DNA of 64,000 bases from an uncultured archaeon. Lineage in GTDB: Archaea; Asgardarchaeota; Lokiarchaeia; Sigyniarchaeales; SOKP01. The first letter of the stretch is position 1, and every line of letters begins with the position of its first letter. The position numbers were made by a program, and so were the translations under genes. Below the pieces are notes generated by a model. The model ran no database searches and was not told the DNA's origin. It saw only the letters and a program-made list of their open reading frames with translations. The DNA lies in contig CAYUTF010000004.1 in assembly GCA_964447495.1 (NCBI GenBank), positions 24,592 through 88,591 of the forward strand, written 5' to 3'. This document shows, in pieces, positions 1 through 53,705 of the stretch.

Positions 1-1
1 T

Positions 2-3000
2 ATTTTTCCTCTACCTGGAGATAAGAAATTAGGTGATATTCATATAATTCAAGATCTTTTTGAAAAATCATTTGTAAATATTATTAAGTGGCGGGAAGCA
101 GATCGTATATTTTCACGAGTGATGGATACAATAAGGACATTATGGTTAAATTCGCCTTGTCCTATTGAACAAATCGATATCAATATTCACCAAGGGTGTG
201 GATATTGTCAATATATAGAAGACTGTAAAATAACTTTAGGAATGGGAGAGGATAATGATCCAAAAGAATGGTCCTCTCGATTACTACCATTTACTTCTCA
301 ATCTATTGCCCAACAGTTGATAGAGGAATATAATTGTAATACTATTGGAGATGTATTAAATAAAATAGATGATATTAAAATCGGTACCATTCCAAAACCA
401 TTATACTCTGAATTACCCACTCTTAAAATGAAAGCGGAGGCTATTGTAAATAATAGAACTGTCTTTCCGTCAGCAGGACAAACACATTCTTATGCCATAC
501 CTCGCTACTCTCCGATTGCGATTAATTTTGATGTAGAATATGATAGGAATAATGACAAGATTTTTGCTATAGGTATTTATTTAAAGATTTTTATCCATTC
601 TAAACTGAGTTATCATGCAATTTTTGATAATTGGTGGAGAGTTTGGAAAAATTCTTTAACCAAAAAAAGTTCTCCAGCTGAGATTCAAAAGGAATTAAAT
701 CAATACCTTATTCGAGAGATTCCTTTAGAAATAGTTGAGCGTTTTTTAAAAAATCTTTCCATATTAAAATCAATTCAGATATATTTAAGAGGAGAAAAGT
801 CAAAAGAAGGGACAATTATACACTATAACTTTGCCAGAATAAATAAAGACAATATAAAAGACAGTGAAGCAAAATTAATTGTAAATGCCATACATCGGTT
901 TAATATAATTTTGGAAATTTGTAATATTCTTGAAGATTTTATTGTTATTGATGACCAATATGGAAGATATTTTGGTCCTGACACTAGTATATTCTATTGG
1001 TCACGAAACCAATTAGATCATTTTCAAGATATGATGGAACGTCACTTAGATTACATTTTAAGCAAACAAGAAGCACGTGAAGCCTATCAATCAATATTAA
1101 TGTATTTTACTCCTTCAGATAGTGAGGTAAGTCACCCTTACCAGCATAAAAAATTATTTGATGTCCAAGCATTTGTAGATTCGTTTATAGGATTTCCAGA
1201 TATAATTAATTATACATGGCATGGTATAGCTGAAAGGTTGTTTAATTATCATAGTCATCCAAAATATTGGATTCCGCATTTCAATTTTTTAGATCTAACT
1301 AATTGGTTAAAATATCTTTCTAAGACAGATAAGTTGGATAAATTGAAAATAGAGAATGAGATTAAACATCAAATAGTTATGAAACTTAACTTCATCAATA
1401 GAATTAGAGAGCATTTCCAAAGAGAAGGACGTTATAATTTATCTAAAAATGCAAGGGTAATTAGTAAATCTCAATATGGAAGTGCGATATTACCTTATTT
1501 CTATCACGATATTGCTCATGTATGGTATCTCTTTTCAAAATTGAATAACGCCTTACAACAACAGGATGATGAATATTATCGAACGATCTTTCCTCAATTT
1601 AGTATAGGTAAGTTATTTTCAGCACGAGTAAATAAACTTGAATTACATGATTCATCAGGTAAGACGAAATATTATACTTTTGAAACAAGAGATTTATCCA
1701 GTAATATGAAAATAAGTGAAGGTGACGTTGTATTATTAATTCCAAACTTCAAACGTGGGATGAAACTAGACAAACAAATTTTTAAGTGGCAAATATATAT
1801 TGAAAAAATAACATGGGATAATTCTATCAATGGAAATCGCATAACTACCAAACCTACTTATAGTAATATATTTGAACAATGCGAAGCAGAAGATATAGAT
1901 CCTAAAACTCAGCAATGGTACCTTTATCCTATAAGTTCTGACAATTGGTCGAATAAACTTCACAAACCTAATAACACAGGCTTATTAGAACGTGAAGGAT
2001 TTGGACGTTCCTGGTTAGGATTTCGACTCGCTTATTTATGGGGCATACGTACTGATCCTACTTTACTTTGGCCTCCAAAATGGGATTATTCTACTCCAGT
2101 AATTTATTTTTTTGCTCCGGAATTATTGATGCATTTTTCGAATTCATTTCAAAATGAACTTTCAACTCCTATATATCCTATCCCCGATCCTTCTCAAAAA
2201 GAAGCAATTATAAATTCCTTAAATCATGTTATTTCTGGAATTCTTGGTCCTCCTGGCACTGGAAAATCACAAACTATAGCTGCTTTAATTGATGAGTTTA
2301 TAATCCGCAAGAAAAAAGAAAAAAAACCGTTCAAAATATTAGTTACATCATTTTCTTATGCAGCACTTCGCGTTGTTATTGAAAAAATAAGAACAGGGAG
2401 AACTATAAATAATACAACTACAGAATCCTCAAAAATACAGATGGTATTTTTGCGATCGGAAACACAAGACCCTATTGAATCAAAAAGAGGGAGTAGATAT
2501 ATTGATGATTTACTCAGAACGGGAACATCATGGAAGTTGAATGGAGAAAGTCGTATTGTAACTCCTAAAAATTCTTTAGAACAATCATTAGAAGAATCAT
2601 TTATCCTTTTTACAAATGCACATCATTTGTATTATTTACATGAGCGAGTAGAAGATGATTTTGCTTTTGATTTAATCTGTGTAGATGAGGCAAGTCAATT
2701 ACCCACTGATTATTTCATGTCAAGTTTATTATATATCCATAAATTTAATTTGAATCTGAAAAAGCCAGAAAATCTTGACATTACTTTTAATCATGATGTT
2801 AAGAATAAAGAGGATGTTATTAATCTTCAAATCGATAAAAGTTCGATTTCGTTTGGAATTGAAGACCTCACAAAAATTGTAATTGTAGGAGATCATAATC
2901 AGTTACCCCCAGTGAGGGTGAAAAATCCACCAAAAAATTTGGAACTTATTCTTGATAGTCTTTTTAGTTATTATATTAAAGGACATAAAATATCAAAAAA

Positions 3001-3763
3001 ACAACTTAAGATTAATTATCGCTCACACCAAGATATTGTATCTTTTACTTCACTATTGGGGCTTTACAAGAATATTAAACCCTACAAATCTAATGCGTCA
3101 AGAGTCTTGGAAGGAAATCTAAATAATATGAAACTTTCATGGGTTAAAGAAGTATTGTCACCCGAAAGAGTTGTTTGTTCCCTAATTCATAATCGTAAGT
3201 TTGAAATCGGGATTAGTGAATTTGAAGCAGATTTAGTATGTGAATTAGTATCGGGATTCTTTGATATGATAAAACCTCAAAGTATTAAAGAGGAAAAAAA
3301 ATTTTGGGCGGAACGCATAGGAGTCGTAGCGCCCCATAATGCCCAAGGGCGGGCAATCATTAGGAAAATATTTACAAAATTTCAGGAAAGAACGTATTTA
3401 ACTGATGCCCGATTAATGGAATATCTTAAAAGTACTATCTATTCAGTAGAAAAATTTCAGGGTTCTGATCGAGATTTAATAATTACCTCAATTGGATTAT
3501 CAGATGAAGATAAAATAAGTACTGAAGAGGATTTTATTTTTAATTTGAATCGATTCAATGTCTTGACATCTAGAGCTAAAAATAAAATTATTTTTATTTC
3601 CAGTGATAAATTTTTGCAATATATTCCTGAAGATAGAAAAGCACTGGAAAATGCGTCTAAAGTGTATCTATATGCAGAAGATTTTTGCAATCAACAAATT
3701 CTTCTCACCGTAAAGAATGAAAAGAATGAAAATGAACAAATCATATTTAAGTATAAAAATTAA
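2..3763 (+). CDS. Dna2/Cas4-like Fe-S nuclease - RNase H-like - SF1 (UPF1/Dna2-type) helicase, 5' partial
   Basis: Frame is open from position 2 (IFPLPGDKK...) into the 119..3763 ORF, so the gene starts upstream of the window. CxxCx5C (GCGYCQYIEDC) as at the C-end of Cas4/AddB/Dna2 nucleases; FDVEYD RNase H-like motif; Walker A GPPGTGKS; DEASQ; VGDHNQLPP; NYRSH; SVEKFQGSDRD; RFNVLTSRAK. Confidence 0.85.
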   Translation: MFPLPGDKKLGDIHIIQDLFEKSFVNIIKWREADRIFSRVMDTIRTLWLNSPCPIEQIDINIHQGCGYCQYIEDCKITLGMGEDNDPKEWSSRLLPFTSQSIAQQLIEEYNCNTIGDVLNKIDDIKIGTIPKPLYSELPTLKMKAEAIVNNRTVFPSAGQTHSYAIPRYSPIAINFDVEYDRNNDKIFAIGIYLKIFIHSKLSYHAIFDNWWRVWKNSLTKKSSPAEIQKELNQYLIREIPLEIVERFLKNLSILKSIQIYLRGEKSKEGTIIHYNFARINKDNIKDSEAKLIVNAIHRFNIILEICNILEDFIVIDDQYGRYFGPDTSIFYWSRNQLDHFQDMMERHLDYILSKQEAREAYQSILMYFTPSDSEVSHPYQHKKLFDVQAFVDSFIGFPDIINYTWHGIAERLFNYHSHPKYWIPHFNFLDLTNWLKYLSKTDKLDKLKIENEIKHQIVMKLNFINRIREHFQREGRYNLSKNARVISKSQYGSAILPYFYHDIAHVWYLFSKLNNALQQQDDEYYRTIFPQFSIGKLFSARVNKLELHDSSGKTKYYTFETRDLSSNMKISEGDVVLLIPNFKRGMKLDKQIFKWQIYIEKITWDNSINGNRITTKPTYSNIFEQCEAEDIDPKTQQWYLYPISSDNWSNKLHKPNNTGLLEREGFGRSWLGFRLAYLWGIRTDPTLLWPPKWDYSTPVIYFFAPELLMHFSNSFQNELSTPIYPIPDPSQKEAIINSLNHVISGILGPPGTGKSQTIAALIDEFIIRKKKEKKPFKILVTSFSYAALRVVIEKIRTGRTINNTTTESSKIQMVFLRSETQDPIESKRGSRYIDDLLRTGTSWKLNGESRIVTPKNSLEQSLEESFILFTNAHHLYYLHERVEDDFAFDLICVDEASQLPTDYFMSSLLYIHKFNLNLKKPENLDITFNHDVKNKEDVINLQIDKSSISFGIEDLTKIVIVGDHNQLPPVRVKNPPKNLELILDSLFSYYIKGHKISKKQLKINYRSHQDIVSFTSLLGLYKNIKPYKSNASRVLEGNLNNMKLSWVKEVLSPERVVCSLIHNRKFEIGISEFEADLVCELVSGFFDMIKPQSIKEEKKFWAERIGVVAPHNAQGRAIIRKIFTKFQERTYLTDARLMEYLKSTIYSVEKFQGSDRDLIITSIGLSDEDKISTEEDFIFNLNRFNVLTSRAKNKIIFISSDKFLQYIPEDRKALENASKVYLYAEDFCNQQILLTVKNEKNENEQIIFKYKN

Positions 3764-3772
3764 GGTATCATC

Positions 3773-5344
3773 ATGAGTTCTGTAAAGTTTTTACATTTAG
3801 CAGACATTCACTTAGGAAAAAAACAATACAATATTTTACAAAGATATTTTGATTATTTTGAAGCCTTCCGATCAGTATTACATAAAGCAATTGAACAAGA
3901 AGTAGATTTTATTCTAATAAGTGGAGATTTAATTGATAGTGATGAAGGTGTAAATCCTTCTATGTTAAGAGAGATTATTAATATTCTTACTTCTTTTAAA
4001 ACTGAATGTATCAAAAATCTACAAAGAGAAATACCAATAATATGTATTGAAGGAAATCATGAAAATCCTCTTTTCTCTGATCTTACTTGGTTAAAACTAG
4101 TGGCAGATTTAGATTTTATAATTTTACTATCAGGAGATTACGATAATAAAAAAAATCAAATTTCTTTTGAAGAATATTCCTCTACTGCGCATTCGGGTGG
4201 TAAGATTGTAATTAAAAATTGTAGTATTTATGGATTGAACTATTTTGGTAGTGCTACTTCTGATTTACTCCCTCTTTTGGAAAATGCTATTTCGAGGAAT
4301 GAAAATACTTTTAATATTTTAATGATGCATTTTGGTATTACTAATTACGATGATAAGAAAACGGGGATAAATTATTCTCCTATTCTTGAAAAGTTACATC
4401 AATCAATTGATTATTTAGCATTAGGGCACTTCCATAAGCAATATAGTATACCGGACCGTCAACCATGGATTTTTAATCCGGGAAGTCTGGAAGTGAATGA
4501 GGTCTCTGAAACCTTTCAGGAAAGAGGAGCATTTCTGATTGAAGTCTTAGACAATAAGAAAATGCAAGTGAGAAGATTACTATGCGTTGAAGGAAATACA
4601 ATGGAACGTCTTTCAATTCCTAATCGAAGGTTCATGGTTTTGAAATATCTTTCGATTGAAGGGCTTAATTCATTCCATGAAGCTCAAGATTACATTATTA
4701 GAGAATTAACTAAGTATGGTGTACCTCTTAAATCAAATCAAACTCTTGAAAAAACAAACTTAGATAAACCCATTCTCTACTTTGCTGTTGGAGGAGTAAT
4801 TAGCTATTCACAATTAGAAGTGGATTTAACTTCACTCAGAAATAGAATTAATGAAAAATTTGATATTTTAGGATTAAAATTAAGCAACAGACTAATTTCT
4901 AGTATGGACCAAGAAATAGCCTTTGACAAGGATTTAAGTGTGGAAGATATTGAAAAAGAGATATTCCTCGGAACACTTGATTTAGAAAAGCGTTTTAAAC
5001 CCTTTAAAGGACAGATATATGATATATTTCAAAATTTAAAAACGCAATTAGGTGGGAAAATAAATTATAAGAAGATAAAAAGTCAAGTAGAATTATGGAT
5101 TGTTTCTGATAAGGACATCTTCAATCAATTCTTATCTGAAATTAAACATAAAAATGCTCTGACAGAAAAAAAAGAAGAACAGATTTCGCCTAAAAAAAAA
5201 GATAGAAAAAAGAAAAACCAAAAAATTTTAAAAGGTGAGGAAGAGAAGGAAGAAGAACAAGATCTAAGTGATATTGATTACAATGACTTATTCGATGGGG
5301 AGGATATTGATGATTTAATTGATGATGAGGATTTAGATTTATAA
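3773..5344 (+). CDS. mre11: Mre11/SbcD DNA double-strand break repair nuclease
   Basis: Phosphoesterase motifs ADIHLG, SGDLID, GNHE, MMH, LGHFH, NPGSLE; directly upstream of rad50; basic then acidic C-terminal tail. Confidence 0.92.
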   Translation: MSSVKFLHLADIHLGKKQYNILQRYFDYFEAFRSVLHKAIEQEVDFILISGDLIDSDEGVNPSMLREIINILTSFKTECIKNLQREIPIICIEGNHENPLFSDLTWLKLVADLDFIILLSGDYDNKKNQISFEEYSSTAHSGGKIVIKNCSIYGLNYFGSATSDLLPLLENAISRNENTFNILMMHFGITNYDDKKTGINYSPILEKLHQSIDYLALGHFHKQYSIPDRQPWIFNPGSLEVNEVSETFQERGAFLIEVLDNKKMQVRRLLCVEGNTMERLSIPNRRFMVLKYLSIEGLNSFHEAQDYIIRELTKYGVPLKSNQTLEKTNLDKPILYFAVGGVISYSQLEVDLTSLRNRINEKFDILGLKLSNRLISSMDQEIAFDKDLSVEDIEKEIFLGTLDLEKRFKPFKGQIYDIFQNLKTQLGGKINYKKIKSQVELWIVSDKDIFNQFLSEIKHKNALTEKKEEQISPKKKDRKKKNQKILKGEEEKEEEQDLSDIDYNDLFDGEDIDDLIDDEDLDL

Positions 5345-5355
5345 GGTGAAAAAGA

Positions 5356-8076
5356 ATGTTATTAAAAAAAATTGAATTGGAAAATATTAAAACTCATAAG
5401 AAAACAGTAATCCCTTTCAAGAAAGGGTTAAATGTCTTTCATGGAAATAATGGTACAGGAAAATCAACGGTATTAGAGATGATTGGGTTTACATTATTCG
5501 ACTATTTAGAAGGAAGATCCCATGATGTATATGTGAGAGATATTAATAATGATAAACAAGTATTTGGAACTATAAAATTATGGATAATCGGTCTGAATAA
5601 CGAACCATATATTATAGAACGTAATATTGGCAAATCTGAAATAGCAGTATATAATGCTTTAACTAATCGTAAAATAGTTAAGATAGAGAAGATATCTCAG
5701 TTAAAAAAGTGGATCGAAACTCAGATAGGGCTTAGTAAAGGTATTGAACTTGATAAATTATTTAAAACATCAATTGGAATACCTCAAGGAACCTTTATTG
5801 ACCCTTTCCAAAGGGAACCTAGAGAAAGAAAGAATTACTTTGATCCAATTTTAAGTTTAAAAATTTATGAAGTTATTTGGAGTGAACTAGGAAAATTAGG
5901 AAAAGGAGCATATGAGAGACTTTTACATGAGATTAAGGAAGAAATCAGTGAAATCACTGGTGAGATTAAAAATAAGTCGGTTTTAATTAATAACATAGAT
6001 AAAGTAACTAAGGATTTTGACGCTTTAGAAATAAAAGTTGGTAAAATAAAAGAAGTGGGAAAAAAGATTAAAGAGAAATTTGATGAGTTAAAAAATTTAA
6101 AAGAGGAGAGTAAAAGTGTTCAAGAAGATTACGAAAAGTTACAGCTTAGAGAAAAAGATGCACAAATAAGGGTTTCTGAATTCATTATTAAATTGAATCA
6201 GGTTAAAGAAGCTAAGCTTATTTGTGATAAAGCAAAGAATAATTATGAGCAATATGAACTACAAACAAAAGAACAGAAGAAACTTGAAGCTGAACTGAGC
6301 GATCTTCAAGAAAAACAAAAAATATTACAAGATTTAAAAACGGACCACTTACATATAGAAAGTGAGAAAAATAATTTAATAAATCAAATTAATGAAGCAA
6401 AAGAAGCCCTCGAAAATAGTATTAAACTTAAAAGCAAATACAATCGATATCAGGAACTTGAAGCAGATTTATTATTAATAAATGAAGATTTGACCCGATT
6501 TAAGACTATAGATGAGGGTTTAACTAAAAAAAGATCAGATTCAGAAACTTTTAAAAAACAATTAGAGCTATCCCATAAAAAAATTGAATCATTTTCCAAA
6601 TTAGAAACGAAGCTTAAAGAATTAGAAACCCTTGAATTAAAAAAAGAGGGTATAAAATTAATTATATCCGATTTAGAAAAAGAAATAGCTTTAATTAATC
6701 AAAATTACGAGTATTTATTAACAGGTAAATGCCCTTTCTTTAATCAAACTTGTAGAAATATTGAAGAGAAGAAATCTGATCCGAAATCTCTTTTAAAACA
6801 AGTAAAATATAAGAAAGATTTATTGAAAAAAAGCATAGACGAAGTAAAACAATTAGAAAAAGACTTAGAAGCAAAAGAAGAATTTCATATCAAAATTGAG
6901 AGTTTAAAAGAAGTAAGAATTAGATTAGCGATTAATCAAAAACGATTTGAAGAACTAAATGAAGAAATAAAAAAAGAGAATGAATATATAAAAAATAAAG
7001 ATACTTATTGGGAAAGAAAGAAGAAATTGGATGATGAGAAGAGAGCCTTAGAAAATTCAATTAATGATTATATCACTTTCAGTAAATTATCTGAGAAGCT
7101 TCCTGAATTAGAAAAAAGAATGAATCCTTTAATGTCAAAATTAGAGGAAATTGAAAAAGTAATGCGTGATATGGAGAAAGAAACCAAAAAATTGGATCAA
7201 ATTCCCAAATTATTCAAAAAAATCCAAGAAGAATTAGCGAATTTAAAGAAAGACTACACATTATATCAAACTCATATTAAGCAAGCAGAAGAACTTCCTA
7301 AAATAGAACAAGATTATAATTCTAGCCTATCTGCTTTAGAGAACCTCAAATTACAAATACAAGAAAACCAAAAGCTGATAAAAGACTTGAATTCTAAATA
7401 TGATGAAGCTGAGTTTCAAAAGTACGAAGAATATTACAGAAAAAACGAGAAAACTAAAACTGAGTTAGAAACACGTATGAATGAACGAAAATTGAGACTA
7501 AATGAATTAAATGAAGAACTTAAAAAAATTGAGGAAATTGAAACTAATTTAGTTAAGTTAAATAAAGAAAAAGATAATTTAGAAGTCCAGCAGTTATTTA
7601 TTGAAAAATTAAGGATGTGGATAAGAGAATTTATCCCGAAAATGAGAAGTGCATTAATAAGCAAGATAAATATTATTGCTTCGGAAATATATAGAGATAT
7701 AAGAGAGGAAGAGGATGCGGTTCTCAAATGGCGGGATAATTATGATATTGAAATCGTTACTCCTAAAACTGTTAAAAATTTCTTTAGACTATCTGGAGGA
7801 GAGAAAATGTCAGCAGCATTAGCAGTCCGATTAGCAATACTAAAAGTGCTAACAAATGCTAATTTTGCTTTTTTTGATGAACCCACTACTAATTTAGATG
7901 AGACAACCCGTAAGAATTTGAGTAAATATATTTATAATATAAAAGGGTTTGAACAATTATTTGTTATCTCCCATGATGATTCCTTCAAACGTCACAGTGA
8001 ATACGTTGTAAGATTTACTAAAGATGCAAATGAGATTACGCATATCGATTATCTTACTAAGGTTAATGAAGAATGA
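5356..8076 (+). CDS. rad50: Rad50/SbcC SMC-family ATPase
   Basis: Walker A GNNGTGKS, Q-loop IPQG, long coiled coil with central CPFFNQTC, signature LSGGE, Walker B FFDEPT, ISH; GGTGA Shine-Dalgarno upstream. Confidence 0.93.
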   Translation: MLLKKIELENIKTHKKTVIPFKKGLNVFHGNNGTGKSTVLEMIGFTLFDYLEGRSHDVYVRDINNDKQVFGTIKLWIIGLNNEPYIIERNIGKSEIAVYNALTNRKIVKIEKISQLKKWIETQIGLSKGIELDKLFKTSIGIPQGTFIDPFQREPRERKNYFDPILSLKIYEVIWSELGKLGKGAYERLLHEIKEEISEITGEIKNKSVLINNIDKVTKDFDALEIKVGKIKEVGKKIKEKFDELKNLKEESKSVQEDYEKLQLREKDAQIRVSEFIIKLNQVKEAKLICDKAKNNYEQYELQTKEQKKLEAELSDLQEKQKILQDLKTDHLHIESEKNNLINQINEAKEALENSIKLKSKYNRYQELEADLLLINEDLTRFKTIDEGLTKKRSDSETFKKQLELSHKKIESFSKLETKLKELETLELKKEGIKLIISDLEKEIALINQNYEYLLTGKCPFFNQTCRNIEEKKSDPKSLLKQVKYKKDLLKKSIDEVKQLEKDLEAKEEFHIKIESLKEVRIRLAINQKRFEELNEEIKKENEYIKNKDTYWERKKKLDDEKRALENSINDYITFSKLSEKLPELEKRMNPLMSKLEEIEKVMRDMEKETKKLDQIPKLFKKIQEELANLKKDYTLYQTHIKQAEELPKIEQDYNSSLSALENLKLQIQENQKLIKDLNSKYDEAEFQKYEEYYRKNEKTKTELETRMNERKLRLNELNEELKKIEEIETNLVKLNKEKDNLEVQQLFIEKLRMWIREFIPKMRSALISKINIIASEIYRDIREEEDAVLKWRDNYDIEIVTPKTVKNFFRLSGGEKMSAALAVRLAILKVLTNANFAFFDEPTTNLDETTRKNLSKYIYNIKGFEQLFVISHDDSFKRHSEYVVRFTKDANEITHIDYLTKVNEE

Positions 8077-8298
8077 GTTCATTAATTTACACACGATCTT
8101 ATTCTAAGAATTATATTGATTGAGCATAAGGCACAACTCAAGGGAAAAGAATTTACATCTTGAATATCATAGGCATTCCTAAAAGTTTGATGTTTGACCT
8201 TTTTTATATATTGATGAGATTTGATAAAAATGTCAAAATTTATATAGTTAACCCGAATACATTTTCATTACCAATCAATCAAAAAAATATATAAATTT

Positions 8299-8616
8299 GT
8301 GATGACTATGGGCTTATTTATGATGACTGTATGGTATCCTCCCCATAAAGCTCCAGATATGGCAAAACTATATTTAAAGCAACCTAAAAAGCTACCCTTT
8401 GTTAGTAAATGGAGAGTATTTAATACTTCCGGTGGTTTAAATGGTATAAAGCAATATCATTTAATATATACCGAACGAGGCAAAGCAGAAGAAGCCTTGG
8501 TAGAATTAGAAAAATATTTTATGCCTTTTTTAACTGTTGATGGTTTCAGATACGATATCGAACATTTAATGGGCGTATCTGATGGTTTCAAATTGCTTGG
8601 GATGGAATGGAAATAA
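8299..8616 (+). CDS. small hypothetical protein (start may be ATG 8302 or 8308)
   Basis: 105-aa ORF with protein-like composition, followed by a T10 tract. Confidence 0.7.
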   Translation: MMTMGLFMMTVWYPPHKAPDMAKLYLKQPKKLPFVSKWRVFNTSGGLNGIKQYHLIYTERGKAEEALVELEKYFMPFLTVDGFRYDIEHLMGVSDGFKLLGMEWK

Positions 8617-8621
8617 TCATA

Positions 8622-8642
8622 TTTTTAATTTCTTTTTTTTTT
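8622..8642 (+). terminator. archaeal oligo-T terminator
   Basis: TTTTTAATTTCTTTTTTTTTT immediately after the stop at 8616. Confidence 0.5.
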
Positions 8643-8751
8643 AATAGAGGTCCCATATCTTTATATTCACTACGCGTAACCCACTTTTTAGGATAGAGTA
8701 TCTAAAAACGGTCTTCATATATTTAAATATTAGTTTGGTGATTAGTACTAT

Positions 8752-9138
8752 ATGAGGAAAAAGTGGACAATAATTATTAGGACTCCCCTGCTAAGGAAAA
8801 TACGGGATAATTTGAGGGATCTTTGGGTTGCATGGGCAAGAAGTCAGTATGATGACTTATTCAATAAACGCAGAACCTTGGAGCGAAATGAAGACGGAAA
8901 GTTGAAAAACCTAGATGGGTTTAATCAAGAAGAACGTAAAAAAATTGAAGAATTGGGAGGAAAAATATCTTTGTTGCGTGATATTGAAAATGATTCAATT
9001 TGCATATGCACTGTTTGCGGAAAAGAACATAGAGATATGACTTATAACCCTGTAGATAAGAGTTGGTACTGTGTGGAATGCTATCACGAAAATCAAGAGT
9101 TCTATAAGGATACTAAAGAATCCTTTTTATATCCCTGA
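8752..9138 (+). CDS. hypothetical protein with C-terminal Zn finger
   Basis: CTVC...CVEC cysteine pairs; GGTGA upstream; T11 tract at 9164-9174 downstream. Confidence 0.7.
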   Translation: MRKKWTIIIRTPLLRKIRDNLRDLWVAWARSQYDDLFNKRRTLERNEDGKLKNLDGFNQEERKKIEELGGKISLLRDIENDSICICTVCGKEHRDMTYNPVDKSWYCVECYHENQEFYKDTKESFLYP

Positions 9139-9304
9139 CTTCTTTCTCTTGTTTTGCCATAGGTTTTTTTTTTTCATGTTTATATTAACAAGAATGATTA
9201 CTAAAGCCCTTTAATGTAATTTTTTTAATAAAATAATAAAAAGTAAAAAATAAAAAACTTAAATAAAAGGTTATTTTTTTAATTGGGCATAGGAGATTAG
9301 CCCA

Positions 9305-51218: not shown

Positions 51219-51494
51219 ATAATCGAATCACATCGCTGGAATCAAAAACCTGTTGTTAATTCAATCATTGATATTTTGATAAAAAATAAAGGAGAAATAT
51301 TAGATAAAAGAATGGAGGAACTCCTTAAAAAAGAATTTCCTTTTGTAAATTCATTATACTTGGAAGAAATTTTTATGAAATTAGAATGTATGAATATAAT
51401 AAATGTTTTTAGAGTATCTAAGAGCAAGAAAATGATTGTTTATAATAAACGCAATCAAAATATTAAAGAAGACATCCTAAACGAATCAATTTAA
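51219..51494 (+). CDS. small winged-helix-like protein downstream of cdc48 (start uncertain)
   Basis: ORF track starts at TTG 51276, but the frame is open from 51216 (ATT ATA ATC GAA...WNQKPVVNSIIDIL) right after GGTGA at 51211. Confidence 0.6.
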   Translation: MIESHRWNQKPVVNSIIDILIKNKGEILDKRMEELLKKEFPFVNSLYLEEIFMKLECMNIINVFRVSKSKKMIVYNKRNQNIKEDILNESI

Positions 51495-53012
51495 TTTTGT
51501 ATTTTTCCAAATTAAGCACATATTTGATAAAGTGTTACTTTCTGTACTGGATTTGAAATTCCTTTTTCTCACTTTTATAAAGATAGGATAATTTACAGCA
51601 TTTCCCATTAGAAGCATTTCTCCGACCCCAAGACTGGATATCATATCAGTGTATTCTTTAGTTATGGCTTCAGAACTATCCATCAAATGTTTGAGGTCAT
51701 ATGGATTTTTGATATTTAGTATTAGCTTTGAATTTGATTGAGATAATGCTGTTGTACTTAATTTTTTTGGTCTTTGACTGATCAAGCAGAGACAAGCCAT
51801 GAATTTTCTGCCTTCTCTAGCGATTGTTTCTATAATACTTTTTGATAGCGCTTTAGATTGAGCTGCTTCAGGACAAAATTGATGAGCCTCTTCTATAATT
51901 AGCAAGAAAGGAGGGATTTGCTGCATTCTTCTTAAATAAAATAAACGATTACAGATGTAATCGACTAAAATTTGTTTTTTCCGTATTGAAATTTCATTTT
52001 CAAGGTTAAAAATTAATAAGTCTCCTTGTTTTACAATTTCATTTATGATCGGGTTTTCTTGAGGTCCAAAAATAGTCAATCTGTCTAATTCAGATAACCA
52101 ACCTACTAAAGCTTGTTTTGTTGATTTGTTGCCATCATTTTCATTTTCTATAACTTCTATTAAATCTTTTAATCCATAATAATTCTTTTTATCTTTTTTT
52201 TCTCGTAATTTCTTAATAAGTTTTGCCAATTCCCTAATCTGGACATGAGATATTTGTTCTTGGTATTTTCTAAATGAATAAGCGCTCATTTGAGGGACAG
52301 AAACTTGAAAATAAGAAATATCAATTACTTTCACTTTATTTTTAATTTGAGGGACATTCTTCAAATAAGTATACTCACCATGCACATCTATTAGCACTAT
52401 AGCAGGATTTCCATGAGCCTTATCCCTATTAAGTAATTCTTCAATAATTATCGATGTCAAATAGCTTTTACCTCCTCCAGAAATCGAAAGGATTGAAAAA
52501 TGTTTATTTAATAAGCGGTCCATATTTATTGATGCATCAATTTTAGTTGAACTTAATTTTCCTAAATTTAAACCCTTTTCGTGATCTAAACCAATGAAAT
52601 TGATAAGAGTATTATCATCGACAAGGTAAACTTCCTTTCCAGGGCTTGCAGGATAAGTCATCCTTGATATTTTATTAATTTCATGATCAGAAGCGTCGTT
52701 AAACTCAATGATTCCTAAATTTCTTACGATAGCTATAGCATATTCAAAATCATCACTAGGAAAAAGCCCCTTAAGGATATTGGGATTGTCATTATTATTA
52801 TATGCTTTTATGGTTAAGGCATCTGAAAAATATTCGTTTAATAAAACAATTTTTTCTACTATGCCTATTAAAAAACCTTCTATTGATTGAGTATATACAA
52901 ATATTCCTTTTTTGATTAGAATTCCATCTTTCCTTTTATTGATCACAAATGGATATTGTAATACATCTGGTAACTGAAGATAATTGAAAACAATTCCAAC
53001 CTTTGAGGGCAT
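51486..53012 (-). CDS. herA: HerA/FtsK-like ATPase (DUF87)
   Basis: KHFSILSISGGGKSY, IDVHGEY, IEEAHQF, IAREGRKF, ISQRP, L.VGE; likely ATG at 53012 (MPSKVG). Confidence 0.8.
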   Translation of the reverse strand: MPSKVGIVFNYLQLPDVLQYPFVINKRKDGILIKKGIFVYTQSIEGFLIGIVEKIVLLNEYFSDALTIKAYNNNDNPNILKGLFPSDDFEYAIAIVRNLGIIEFNDASDHEINKISRMTYPASPGKEVYLVDDNTLINFIGLDHEKGLNLGKLSSTKIDASINMDRLLNKHFSILSISGGGKSYLTSIIIEELLNRDKAHGNPAIVLIDVHGEYTYLKNVPQIKNKVKVIDISYFQVSVPQMSAYSFRKYQEQISHVQIRELAKLIKKLREKKDKKNYYGLKDLIEVIENENDGNKSTKQALVGWLSELDRLTIFGPQENPIINEIVKQGDLLIFNLENEISIRKKQILVDYICNRLFYLRRMQQIPPFLLIIEEAHQFCPEAAQSKALSKSIIETIAREGRKFMACLCLISQRPKKLSTTALSQSNSKLILNIKNPYDLKHLMDSSEAITKEYTDMISSLGVGEMLLMGNAVNYPIFIKVRKRNFKSSTESNTLSNMCLIWKNTKLN

Positions 53013-53108
53013 TGTGTAAAAATAAGAAATTTGAAAAATAAAAATGAAGTAAGAGCATAAATTTAGTAATTTGAATAAAAATGAAGAAAAAATCATTAAT
53101 TATAAAAT

Positions 53109-53705
53109 CTATTTTTCTAGTGTACCCATAATTTTTAGAATAAGATAATAACCATTTTTCCAAAAGTAGACAATAAATAATGAGATTGCAATTGCTGCAA
53201 ATAATGCCAATCCTATAAACAGTGTCCAGTTTCCTGAAGTGAAAGTACGTAAAAGGTTTGAGAACGGAGAGTCTGTACCCGGTTCTAGCAAAAGATCACT
53301 AATTAACGCATATATAGTACCTCCAATGAGCGCTATAACGCTTATCAATAATCCTCCAGCTGCGATTTTAACGTCTAGTCTATTCTTGAATCTCTCTTCT
53401 ATGTTGCGAGTCTTAAATAAAAATTTGAGAACCCATTTACTTCCTTTTTTGAAGAGACCAAAGAAAAAGATGAGTAAAAAAAATAACCCTGCTAAAAACC
53501 CTGCTACAATAGCAATTTGATACCCTAAATTTAATTCTAAAAATGCTCCTAATTTTCCTGCTGGCATCCAATAATCAACAATAGTCCATACAAGACCTCC
53601 AATTGTAATAATACAAGCAGCAACAATAAAAATATAATATATTTCTCCAGCAGCTCTTTGTCTAGACGAGTAATCTGCTTTAATACTTGAATGACTTTCT
53701 TCCAT
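53109..53705 (-). CDS. 4-TM membrane protein
   Basis: Four hydrophobic segments in two similar halves, ending FKKG and WKNG. Confidence 0.75.
   Translation of the reverse strand: MEESHSSIKADYSSRQRAAGEIYYIFIVAACIITIGGLVWTIVDYWMPAGKLGAFLELNLGYQIAIVAGFLAGLFFLLIFFFGLFKKGSKWVLKFLFKTRNIEERFKNRLDVKIAAGGLLISVIALIGGTIYALISDLLLEPGTDSPFSNLLRTFTSGNWTLFIGLALFAAIAISLFIVYFWKNGYYLILKIMGTLEK

Follow-up and report, generated by a model that had tools for sequence, protein, structure and literature searches.

In Sulfolobus, Pyrococcus and Thermococcus, mre11 and rad50 share an operon with genes for a motor and a 5'-strand nuclease, the herA-nurA-mre11-rad50 set, and a 2026 review of NurA treats end resection in Asgard archaea as HerA-NurA-based (PMC13748450). 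In eukaryotes, Dna2, which joins an iron-staple nuclease, a barrel and an Upf1-type superfamily 1B (SF1B) helicase (mouse structures 5EAN and 5EAW), acts after MRN/MRX in long-range resection (PMC4716839). Bad of Geobacillus stearothermophilus is composed of an iron-staple nuclease, a central domain and an SF1B helicase (PMC7430649); in both Dna2 and Bad, the iron-staple nuclease is joined to an SF1B motor of 5'-3' polarity (PMC4716839, PMC7430649), and Cas4 is a 5'-3' exonuclease (PMC3466216). We analysed a stretch of 64,000 nucleotides (the window), positions 24592-88591 of contig C4 of an uncultured archaeon of the Lokiarchaeia (genome G000, 98.4% complete), which opens inside the gene of a 1490-aa nuclease-helicase, for which we use the working name NH, followed by mre11 and rad50. 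We consider it probable, at roughly 0.6, that NH replaces HerA and NurA in Mre11-Rad50-linked end resection, the trio being an alternative to the herA-nurA-mre11-rad50 set. The strongest argument is that the two kinds of cassette alternate at the same sites, from which we infer that NH does the job of HerA-NurA, namely long-range processing of the 5' strand.

The genomes compared are metagenome-assembled genomes (MAGs), sampled as a genus group (g1) and a family group (f1); G codes denote relatives' genomes and L codes fetched loci. Two cassette types other than the trio were distinguished, S2 having the gene order herA-nurA-like-mre11-rad50 and S1 the order nurA-like-herA-mre11-rad50. The trio of G000 is part of a 10.2-kb insertion or deletion (C4:23587-33810), since the site is empty in G065, G201 and G057, where flanks collinear with C4 nearly meet, being 858, 194 and 274 bp apart, respectively. 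The element is bordered by a 321-aa gene of no known family on one side and an actin gene on the other. At this actin site, G264 carries an S2 cassette, encoding HerA (582 aa), a NurA-like protein (408), Mre11 (437) and Rad50 (696). In G083 and G338, the trio is located between sequences that are adjacent on contig C32 of G000, beside an aminotransferase gene, and the aminotransferase site of G000 itself is empty. The same aminotransferase site is occupied by an S2 cassette in G071 and by S1 cassettes in G117 and G201 (NurA-like protein, 376 aa; HerA, ~520; Mre11, ~430; Rad50, ~705). Thus, herA-nurA-mre11-rad50 cassettes occupy, in sister genomes, the very sites of the NH cassette, within which no HerA or NurA gene was found. 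The HerA assignments in these cassettes are sound (1.4e-13 to 2.9e-22), and those of NurA are weak (Pfam 0.002 and 5.7e-4).

The gene content was inspected in six cassettes (S2 in G071 and G264, S1 in G117 and G201, and NH in G083 and G338), and the cassettes of the other genomes were typed by Rad50 match and distance. The aminotransferase gene was found in 36 genus genomes, and in 27 of them an Mre11-Rad50 cassette is on the contig of this gene, no more than 6 kb away; 13 of the 27 are S2, 8 are S1 or S1-like (7 + 1), 5 are of the NH type and 1 is of another type. Altogether, one or more Mre11-Rad50 cassettes were found in 37 of the 41 genus genomes, most of which have one type only, and the four without any are 70-89% complete. 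By type, the 41 genomes comprise 11 with the NH/long type, 16 with S2, 11 with the S1 type only, and 4 with none; the long type and an S type coexist within the genus only in G332, whose contamination is 8%. Cassettes that swap at the same loci, with nearly every genome having one, give the picture seen when non-orthologous systems displace one another in a function that the cell needs.

The association of NH with Mre11-Rad50 extends beyond these genomes. A word-based search with NH residues 1-960 returned 61 proteins, mostly of ~1470-1500 aa with a few longer (up to 1653) or partial, and those with a name carry the labels Lokiarchaeota, Promethearchaeota or Hermodarchaeota; public records call the protein nothing more specific than "DEAD/DEAH box helicase", "AAA domain-containing protein" or "hypothetical". 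Of the 59 public loci fetched, 46 have enough DNA to judge the neighbourhood. The mre11 gene directly follows NH on the same strand in 28 of these 46, with rad50 next wherever the contig continues. All 28 are of the Promethearchaeota type, of which 30 loci could be assessed, and they include Lokiarchaeum ossiferum; the adjacency seen at the G000 locus thus recurs elsewhere. The exceptions of this type are L027, in which neither gene lies within 8 kb, and L049, in which mre11-rad50 is adjacent but divergent. The group of Promethearchaeum syntrophicum MK-D1 is counted among the 28, although there NH and mre11 are separated by an insert of 2.8 kb that contains two unrelated genes.

A profile search of 1.84 billion representatives gave 412 matches at E <= 0.001 and 130 at E <= 1e-30. 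Second-tier relatives (1371-1570 aa) match the nuclease and linker only, and AAA_11 and AAA_12 are present as well in those that were scanned. For one second-tier protein, the look-alike Atlas clusters have automatic names such as "bifunctional RecB family nuclease/DEAD/DEAH box helicase" and come from several bacterial phyla and Methanobacteriota, both of which we take as leads. When the helicase region was used as the query, the matches listed (the best 120 of 506) were NH family members only. In a tree of 41 rows (LG+G4), rooted on five second-tier proteins, although long branches make this root unsure, seven sequences from Myxococcota and proteobacterial MAGs (support 99) stand beside an archaeal clade (support 80) that contains two groups, one Heimdall-labelled and one of 21 Promethearchaeota rows (support 99). 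A "Myxococcales" MAG sequence, L079, is placed within the Heimdall-labelled clade. At three loci of Myxococcota MAGs (L067:4737-7241, L070:5373-7241 and L065:4901-7930), the gene before the NH homologue encodes a beta-CASP metallo-beta-lactamase nuclease in two cases and a DEAD/Cas3-like helicase in one. Within G000, NH is the only AAA_12-type helicase, and a phmmer search of NH against all open reading frames (ORFs) of the genome returned the self-match and no paralog.

The NH protein is organized as an iron-staple nuclease, a linker resembling a helix-hairpin-helix, a DnaQ-fold domain, a beta-barrel and an SF1B helicase. Its gene starts 710 nt upstream of the window, which leaves the first 237 residues outside. 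The sequence-only reading, which saw the three clustered cysteines CxxCx5C, took them for the end of a Cas4/AddB/Dna2-type nuclease whose catalytic part would lie upstream, and both expectations were borne out: the upstream part contains C19, which is the first Fe-S cysteine, and the PD-(D/E)xK motifs (E117, R148-P149-D150, D192-x-K194, E208 and Y212), while the clustered cysteines are C303, C306 and C312. Ten residues, namely C19, E117, D150, D192, K194, E208, Y212, C303, C306 and C312, are unchanged in all 24 N-terminal regions that we aligned, which come from loci of the Promethearchaeota type, Heimdall-labelled loci and Myxococcota. Judged by its motifs, the N-terminus is predicted to form a complete PD-(D/E)xK site held together by four cysteines, as in AddB, Cas4 and Dna2. 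Residues 1-740 were modelled from a 23-row alignment (predicted local distance difference test [pLDDT] 87, predicted template modelling score 0.81), and the model was compared with 48,161 chains by the VIA structure search, in which residues 3-335 align to Cas4 (7mi4_A; Z 9.3, root-mean-square deviation 4.7, 198 residues aligned). The likeness to Cas4 is structural only, as modelled: Pfam and NCBIfam nuclease models do not match NH, Cas4 PF01930 matches neither NH (Pfam, E <= 1) nor anything else in the genome, and the TM0106 model TIGR03491 (cut-off 97.45 bits) has no match to the 1490-aa protein at E <= 0.1. Likewise, Foldseek with the 740-residue model gave nothing at E <= 0.001, with Cas4 8d3l_I at a probability of 0.84. 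The best Foldseek rows for residues 1-740 were Prp8 (E 0.01, TM 0.09, 520-600 columns). In Prp8, a spliceosomal protein, an endonuclease-like domain likewise precedes an RNase H-like one, and the resemblance is probably due to chance. The predicted linker consists of helices 337-346, 352-361 and 372-387; no HHH model matches the linker of NH itself, and Pfam HHH_5 matches the second-tier relative P0211 at the corresponding place (8.5e-4, below the cut-off).

The segment that follows, which had been read from the sequence alone as RNase H-like (FDVEYD), belongs to a DnaQ-fold domain, with polymerase-B exonuclease domains as the best matches. In the VIA search, residues 406-723 match polymerase-B exonuclease domains and DEDD exonucleases with Z values from 12.5 to 8.3, including Pol alpha (8d0b_F, 12.5), Pol epsilon (4m8o_A, 12.2), P. 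abyssi PolB (4flt_A, 11.9), ExoI (1fxx_A, 10.8) and MrfB (8un9_B, 10.6). The candidate catalytic motifs are D414-x-E416, D418 and H663-x4-D668, conserved in the 24 sequences as follows: D414 in 12, E416 in 21, D418 in 24, H663 in 22, and D668 as D or E in 24. The site is only partly canonical, and no residue of motif II can be assigned in the alignment. The remark in the sequence-only reading that the final catalytic Asp is missing is probably wrong, because H663-x4-D668 is kept and it is the first Asp, D414, that varies.

As for the C-terminal half, a model of residues 741-1490 (pLDDT 81) shows a five-strand barrel followed by the helicase, which matches Pfam AAA_11 (2.2e-14) and AAA_12 (1.7e-20), and an NCBIfam IGHMBP2-family model below its cut-off. 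None of 24 Loki-type relatives deviates in the Walker A, DEASQ, GDxxQLPPV or QGxxR motif. Foldseek places Dna2 (5ean_A) on top with E 6.2e-25, ahead of Upf1 (2xzp, 7.2e-22) and IGHMBP2 (1.5e-21), and VIA gives a tie among IGHMBP2 (Z 22.9), Upf1 (20.9) and Dna2 (20.8), the identity being highest for Dna2 (24%); in these VIA alignments, model residues 1-743 correspond to 440-1053 of Dna2 5eaw_A and to 9-648 of IGHMBP2 4b3g_B. Searched against the sequences of the PDB, the family profile finds Dna2 first (7.7e-17), over helicase domain 2A only, and nothing for the nuclease half, Dna2 included. The complete UPF1/Dna2-type SF1 helicase that had been recognized in the sequence is thus placed, by Foldseek, profile and VIA, inside the Upf1/Dna2 branch of SF1B.

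The two partners of NH are of a long type. The Mre11 protein matches Pfam Metallophos (4.7e-16) and NCBIfam Mre11_Pyroc (1.2e-30; 106.7 bits against an equivalog cut-off of 600), and its phosphoesterase residues H13, D52, N95, H96, H186, H219 and H221 are invariant in 15 sequences. Its C-terminus (residues ~492-523) contains a lysine-rich stretch and then a conserved acidic tail with a consensus of about D-L-D-D-x-I-D-D. This tail is possibly a docking motif, and it is absent from the Mre11 of the MK-D1 type (473 aa), the one encoded beyond the insert that follows NH. Co-folding of NH residues 741-1490 with Mre11 residues 400-523 scored 0.00 in both runs, a result that bears neither way on contact. 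In the Rad50 protein (NCBIfam PRK03918, 2e-51; 175 bits against a cut-off of 700), the Walker A motif, the SGGE signature, the DEPT Walker B motif and the SHD motif are readable, and the apex has C-P-x5-C (C-x6-C; residues 459-466) in place of the CxxC zinc hook. A C-x6-C apex is present in 13 of 15 long-type Rad50 proteins, and CxxC is found in the Harpocratesius-type L059 and L062 and in all four S1/S2 Rad50 proteins examined. The Rad50 of the trio is the only one found in the genome, a protein search giving no other match; the next matches to the Rad50 profile are ORFs of 1489 aa (1.7e-11) and 1157 aa (3e-10). G000 also encodes a second Mre11 paralog of 397 aa (locus L009), 38% identical, adjoining a 393-aa protein of no known family, and this short paralog type occurs in 30 of the 41 genus genomes independently of the cassette carried.

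Compared with the described systems, the trio resembles the herA-nurA-mre11-rad50 set in being an operon of Mre11-Rad50 with a motor and a predicted 5'-strand nuclease. It differs in that NH is one polypeptide instead of a HerA hexamer and a NurA dimer, that its Mre11 is ~90 aa longer with the acidic tail, and that its Rad50 is ~200 aa longer with the C-x6-C apex. With eukaryotic Dna2 it shares the iron-staple nuclease, the barrel and the Upf1-type SF1B helicase, but NH has the ~320-aa DnaQ-fold domain and the helical linker between nuclease and barrel, and it lacks the N-terminal OB domain and the Rpa-binding alpha1 helix, its nuclease fold starting at residue ~3. NH can thus be called Dna2-like in layout and predicted helicase fold, and a claim of orthology would go beyond the comparison made. 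The likeness to Bad is one of layout. The central domain of Bad is described as conserved, of unknown fold and absent from Dna2, and Bad is not reported to occur with Mre11-Rad50, its neighbour being a type III methyltransferase (PMC7430649); for the second-tier relatives of NH (1416-1570 aa), the bifunctional nuclease/helicase name of the look-alike Atlas clusters is a lead in this direction. The TM0106 family (TIGR03491) and Cas4 have in common with NH a four-cysteine Cas4-like nuclease, a helical linker and an RNase H/DnaQ-like fold, and TIGR03491 has weak matches, below the cut-off, in 2 of 11 second-tier relatives (9.3e-8 and 4.5e-10); NH differs by its helicase and by the lack of a TIGR03491, Cas_Cas4 or PDDEXK match. 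Overall, the trio probably works like herA-nurA-mre11-rad50 while being laid out like Dna2 or Bad. The Dna2-like resection module proposed from the sequence alone therefore gains from the alternation with herA-nurA-mre11-rad50 at the same sites, and loses in that the layout departs from that of Dna2. Our literature search found no paper describing the trio, although figures S1-S3 of the Bad paper, on bacterial and archaeal DNA2-like proteins, may include members of the superfamily (PMC7430649).

If NH does replace HerA and NurA, Mre11-Rad50 would locate and open the break, NH would thread onto the 5'-ended strand, and its SF1B motor would move 5' to 3' while the iron-staple nuclease, ahead of the motor, would cut the 5' strand as in Dna2 and Bad, leaving a 3' tail for RadA. 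The DnaQ-fold domain might trim 3' ends or flaps, or be only a DNA-binding or structural module. We propose this polarity, with a 5'-3' motor and the nuclease ahead of it, because Dna2 and Bad work in this way (PMC4716839, PMC7430649). The activities of NH, its polarity and its physical contact with Mre11-Rad50 are those that its domains and the knowledge of its families would predict.

Several observations weigh against the replacement of HerA and NurA by NH. The distribution is patchy, the N-terminal profile of NH being found in 31 of 301 genomes of the phylum (Asgard), 13 of 68 of the family and 4 of 27 of the genus, which implies that the gene set is dispensable for the lineage. The proposal in the sequence-only reading that this Asgard lineage may have such a module thus holds insofar as the trio is real and recurrent, but not lineage-wide. 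Long Rad50 occurs in 24 of 101 family genomes, including G000. The family genomes G030, G302 and G305 contain long and S1 Rad50 together. In G297, a 52-aa C-terminal remnant of NH (C190:9342-9497; L096) precedes an intact long mre11-rad50 at the aminotransferase site, so NH was deleted in this genome while Mre11-Rad50 stayed; a second long-type copy in the same genome is cut by the contig end. Of 16 loci that could be assessed and are Heimdall-labelled, from Myxococcota or otherwise distant, none has adjacent mre11-rad50, and together with L027 this indicates that NH does not need Mre11-Rad50 next door. In addition, G000 retains HerA and NurA genes elsewhere. A solo NurA gene (L008; 423 aa; Pfam NurA, 2.6e-18), which has no HerA neighbour, is flanked by rRNA adenine dimethylase/methyltransferase genes on one side and a CAAX protease gene on the other. 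Next to CDC48, 43 kb downstream of the trio, there is an ATPase of the HerA family (536 aa), which matches NCBIfam HerA at 2.4e-45, below the cut-off. HerA-NurA-type resection may consequently persist in G000. The HerA-family ATPase was considered as a remnant of an S1 cassette, and this was rejected, as the cassette HerAs are only distant (1.4e-13; 6e-6) and the cassette of G201 is at the aminotransferase site. After this gene, a 198-aa ORF has a weak match to a SAVED-fused 2TM effector (4.1e-5, below the cut-off).

Some of these observations would be accounted for if NH alone were a Dna2/Bad-like flap, fork or Okazaki-fragment enzyme whose link with mre11-rad50 in Lokiarchaeia is one of co-regulation and not of joint action at breaks. 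In the Heimdall-labelled, other distant archaeal and Myxococcota loci, NH is a stand-alone gene surrounded by metabolic ones, the rows linked to Mre11-Rad50 form a single subclade (21 rows, support 99), and Dna2 has replication roles besides resection (PMC4716839). Yet co-regulation leaves unexplained that NH holds the position of herA-nurA in the alternative cassettes and that NH and long Rad50 are gained and lost together, long Rad50 being present in 10 of the 13 family genomes that have NH and both being absent from five genus genomes of 98-100% completeness; the gaps of only 9 and 11 nt between the three genes point the same way. We regard a solo enzyme as unlikely, though the least so of the alternatives. 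Similarly, the trio could be an anti-plasmid or anti-virus module, in which an SMC/Rad50-type sensor, together with Mre11 and a nuclease-helicase akin to Bad or Nhi, would recognize the ends or replication intermediates of foreign DNA and destroy them; the sequence-only reading had left room for a role against mobile genetic elements. The patchy presence, the gain and loss of the cassette, and at least two insertion sites that are empty in relatives are in line with it, as is the faster divergence of the cassette genes than of most flanking genes. Between G000 and G083 the identity is 46% for NH, 43% for Mre11 and 34% for Rad50, compared with 40-80% for nine flanking genes (aminotransferase, 78%); actin, at 99-100%, is too conserved to calibrate divergence. 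The combination of at least two sites and divergence above that of the flanks also fits a mobile accessory or defence element, and the genes of Bad in Geobacilli adjoin a type III methyltransferase (PMC7430649).

PADLOC gave partial matches, of Rad50 to LmuB (3.5e-28) and mad3 (1.4e-25) and of the helicase end of NH to MkoA (1.2e-30) and DpdJ (2e-18), but these are limited to generic ATPase and helicase parts, Mre11 has none, and the Lamassu and Mokosh partners, LmuA/LmuC and the PLD nuclease MkoB, were not found at the locus. The repair models outscore the defence models (NCBIfam, Rad50 2e-51 and Mre11 1.2e-30), and a search of the site for further defence genes, an integrase and flanking repeats of at least 12 nt found none. 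Moreover, defence systems usually pile up or are absent, whereas the trio alternates one for one with herA-nurA-mre11-rad50, nearly every genome having one of the three types. Weakened by generic hits that lack their partner genes, defence seems to us unlikely too, by a shade more than a solo enzyme. It is most improbable that NH is an RNA surveillance helicase-nuclease like Upf1, Sen1 or IGHMBP2: the VIA scores to IGHMBP2 and Upf1 are as close as that to Dna2, but the helicase shares its polypeptide with a DNA nuclease of the Cas4/AddB type and an exonuclease fold of the polymerase type, and it is encoded in an operon with DNA-break repair genes.

The ORFs and distances originally noted for the locus (9 nt between NH and mre11, 11 nt between mre11 and rad50, and more than 1250 aa of NH in the window) were confirmed, and the features are listed in the table.

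Table. Coordinates of the features of the NH-mre11-rad50 locus and of related genes. Positions are those of the window unless a contig or locus is named.
Feature	Position	Strand	Remarks
In-window part of the ~10.2-kb insertion/deletion	1..9219	.	NH, mre11, rad50, two small ORFs
NH, complete ORF	C4:23882-28354 = L003:13883-18355		1490 aa
NH, residues 238-1490	2..3763	+	ORF open at 5' end; 1253 aa in window
C303-x2-C306-x5-C312	197..226	+	C-terminal cysteines of iron-staple nuclease (residues ~3-335)
Helical linker, possibly helix-hairpin-helix, residues ~330-400	278..490	+	Predicted from model
DnaQ-fold domain (DEDD-type 3'-5' exonuclease-like), residues 406-723	506..1459	+	VIA on model
Beta-barrel, residues ~778-853	1622..1849	+	Before helicase core as in Upf1-family/Dna2; model
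SF1B helicase core, Upf1/Dna2 type, residues ~960-1490	2168..3763	+	Pfam, Foldseek, VIA
mre11, long type	3773..5344	+	523 aa; 9 nt after NH stop
Mre11 lysine-rich stretch and acidic tail	5246-5341		
rad50, long type	5356..8076	+	906 aa; 11 nt after mre11 stop
Rad50 apex C-x6-C	6730-6753		
Small ORFs after rad50	8299-8616 and 8752-9138		105 aa (first ORF); inside insertion/deletion
HerA-family ATPase	51486-53096	-	
Region of HerA-family ATPase and 198-aa ORF	51486-53705	-	
Solo NurA	G000:C36:7951-9222	-	L008
Second Mre11 paralog	G000:C175:376-2790		L009
Tandem gene pair	L003:544-8112 (G000:C4:10543-18111)		Two copies

The cassette neighbours are housekeeping genes (actin, F420-hydrogenase-type, heterodisulfide-reductase-type, aminotransferase and CDC48), which speaks for the resection reading. 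A 295-nt AT-rich spacer precedes the NH ORF, and upstream of NH come the 321-aa gene and then hydrogenase/heterodisulfide-reductase-type genes. Farther upstream, a gene pair is present in two tandem copies, consisting of an FlpD-like gene (256 aa) and a ~1003-aa flavoprotein gene, with ferredoxin and pyridine-nucleotide-disulfide-oxidoreductase domains (Pfam, second copy). Beyond the small ORFs at the 3' side, the actin gene lies on the opposite strand and is followed by a gene for a leucine-rich-repeat protein. The 105-aa ORF matches no known family; it has a counterpart after the S2 rad50 of G264 (E 4.6e-55) and three weaker paralogs in G000 (C189, C90 and C14). The two cassette borders, compared on both strands, share no words of at least 12 nt. 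All 24 sequencing runs listed for window positions 1-8076 are DNA metagenomes. A scan for promoters and terminators gave numbers close to those of shuffled sequence (30 versus 29.4 and 3 versus 1.8) with models that are of bacterial type and do not apply to archaea.

If NH indeed stands in for HerA and NurA, it would be a single-chain nuclease-motor with a Dna2-like layout, tied to Mre11-Rad50 and interchangeable with herA-nurA-mre11-rad50 at the same locus. The finding bears on the question of how archaea without an operonic HerA-NurA resect DNA ends, and on how eukaryotes exchanged HerA-NurA for Dna2 and Exo1; the NurA review asks whether Dna2 or Exo1 replaced NurA in eukaryotes (PMC13748450). 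A bolder view is that the NH family, with members in Lokiarchaeia and in Heimdall/Hodarchaeales-labelled archaea, is the prokaryotic source of eukaryotic Dna2, which would have lost the DnaQ fold, and that the coupling to Mre11-Rad50 is a forerunner of MRN/MRX-Dna2. We consider this quite doubtful, more so than a defence role; if true, it would explain why eukaryotes lack HerA-NurA. At the level of these archaea, the alternation of cassettes suggests that the end-resection machinery is modular and swapped as cassettes, which is unusual for genes that are counted as core repair.

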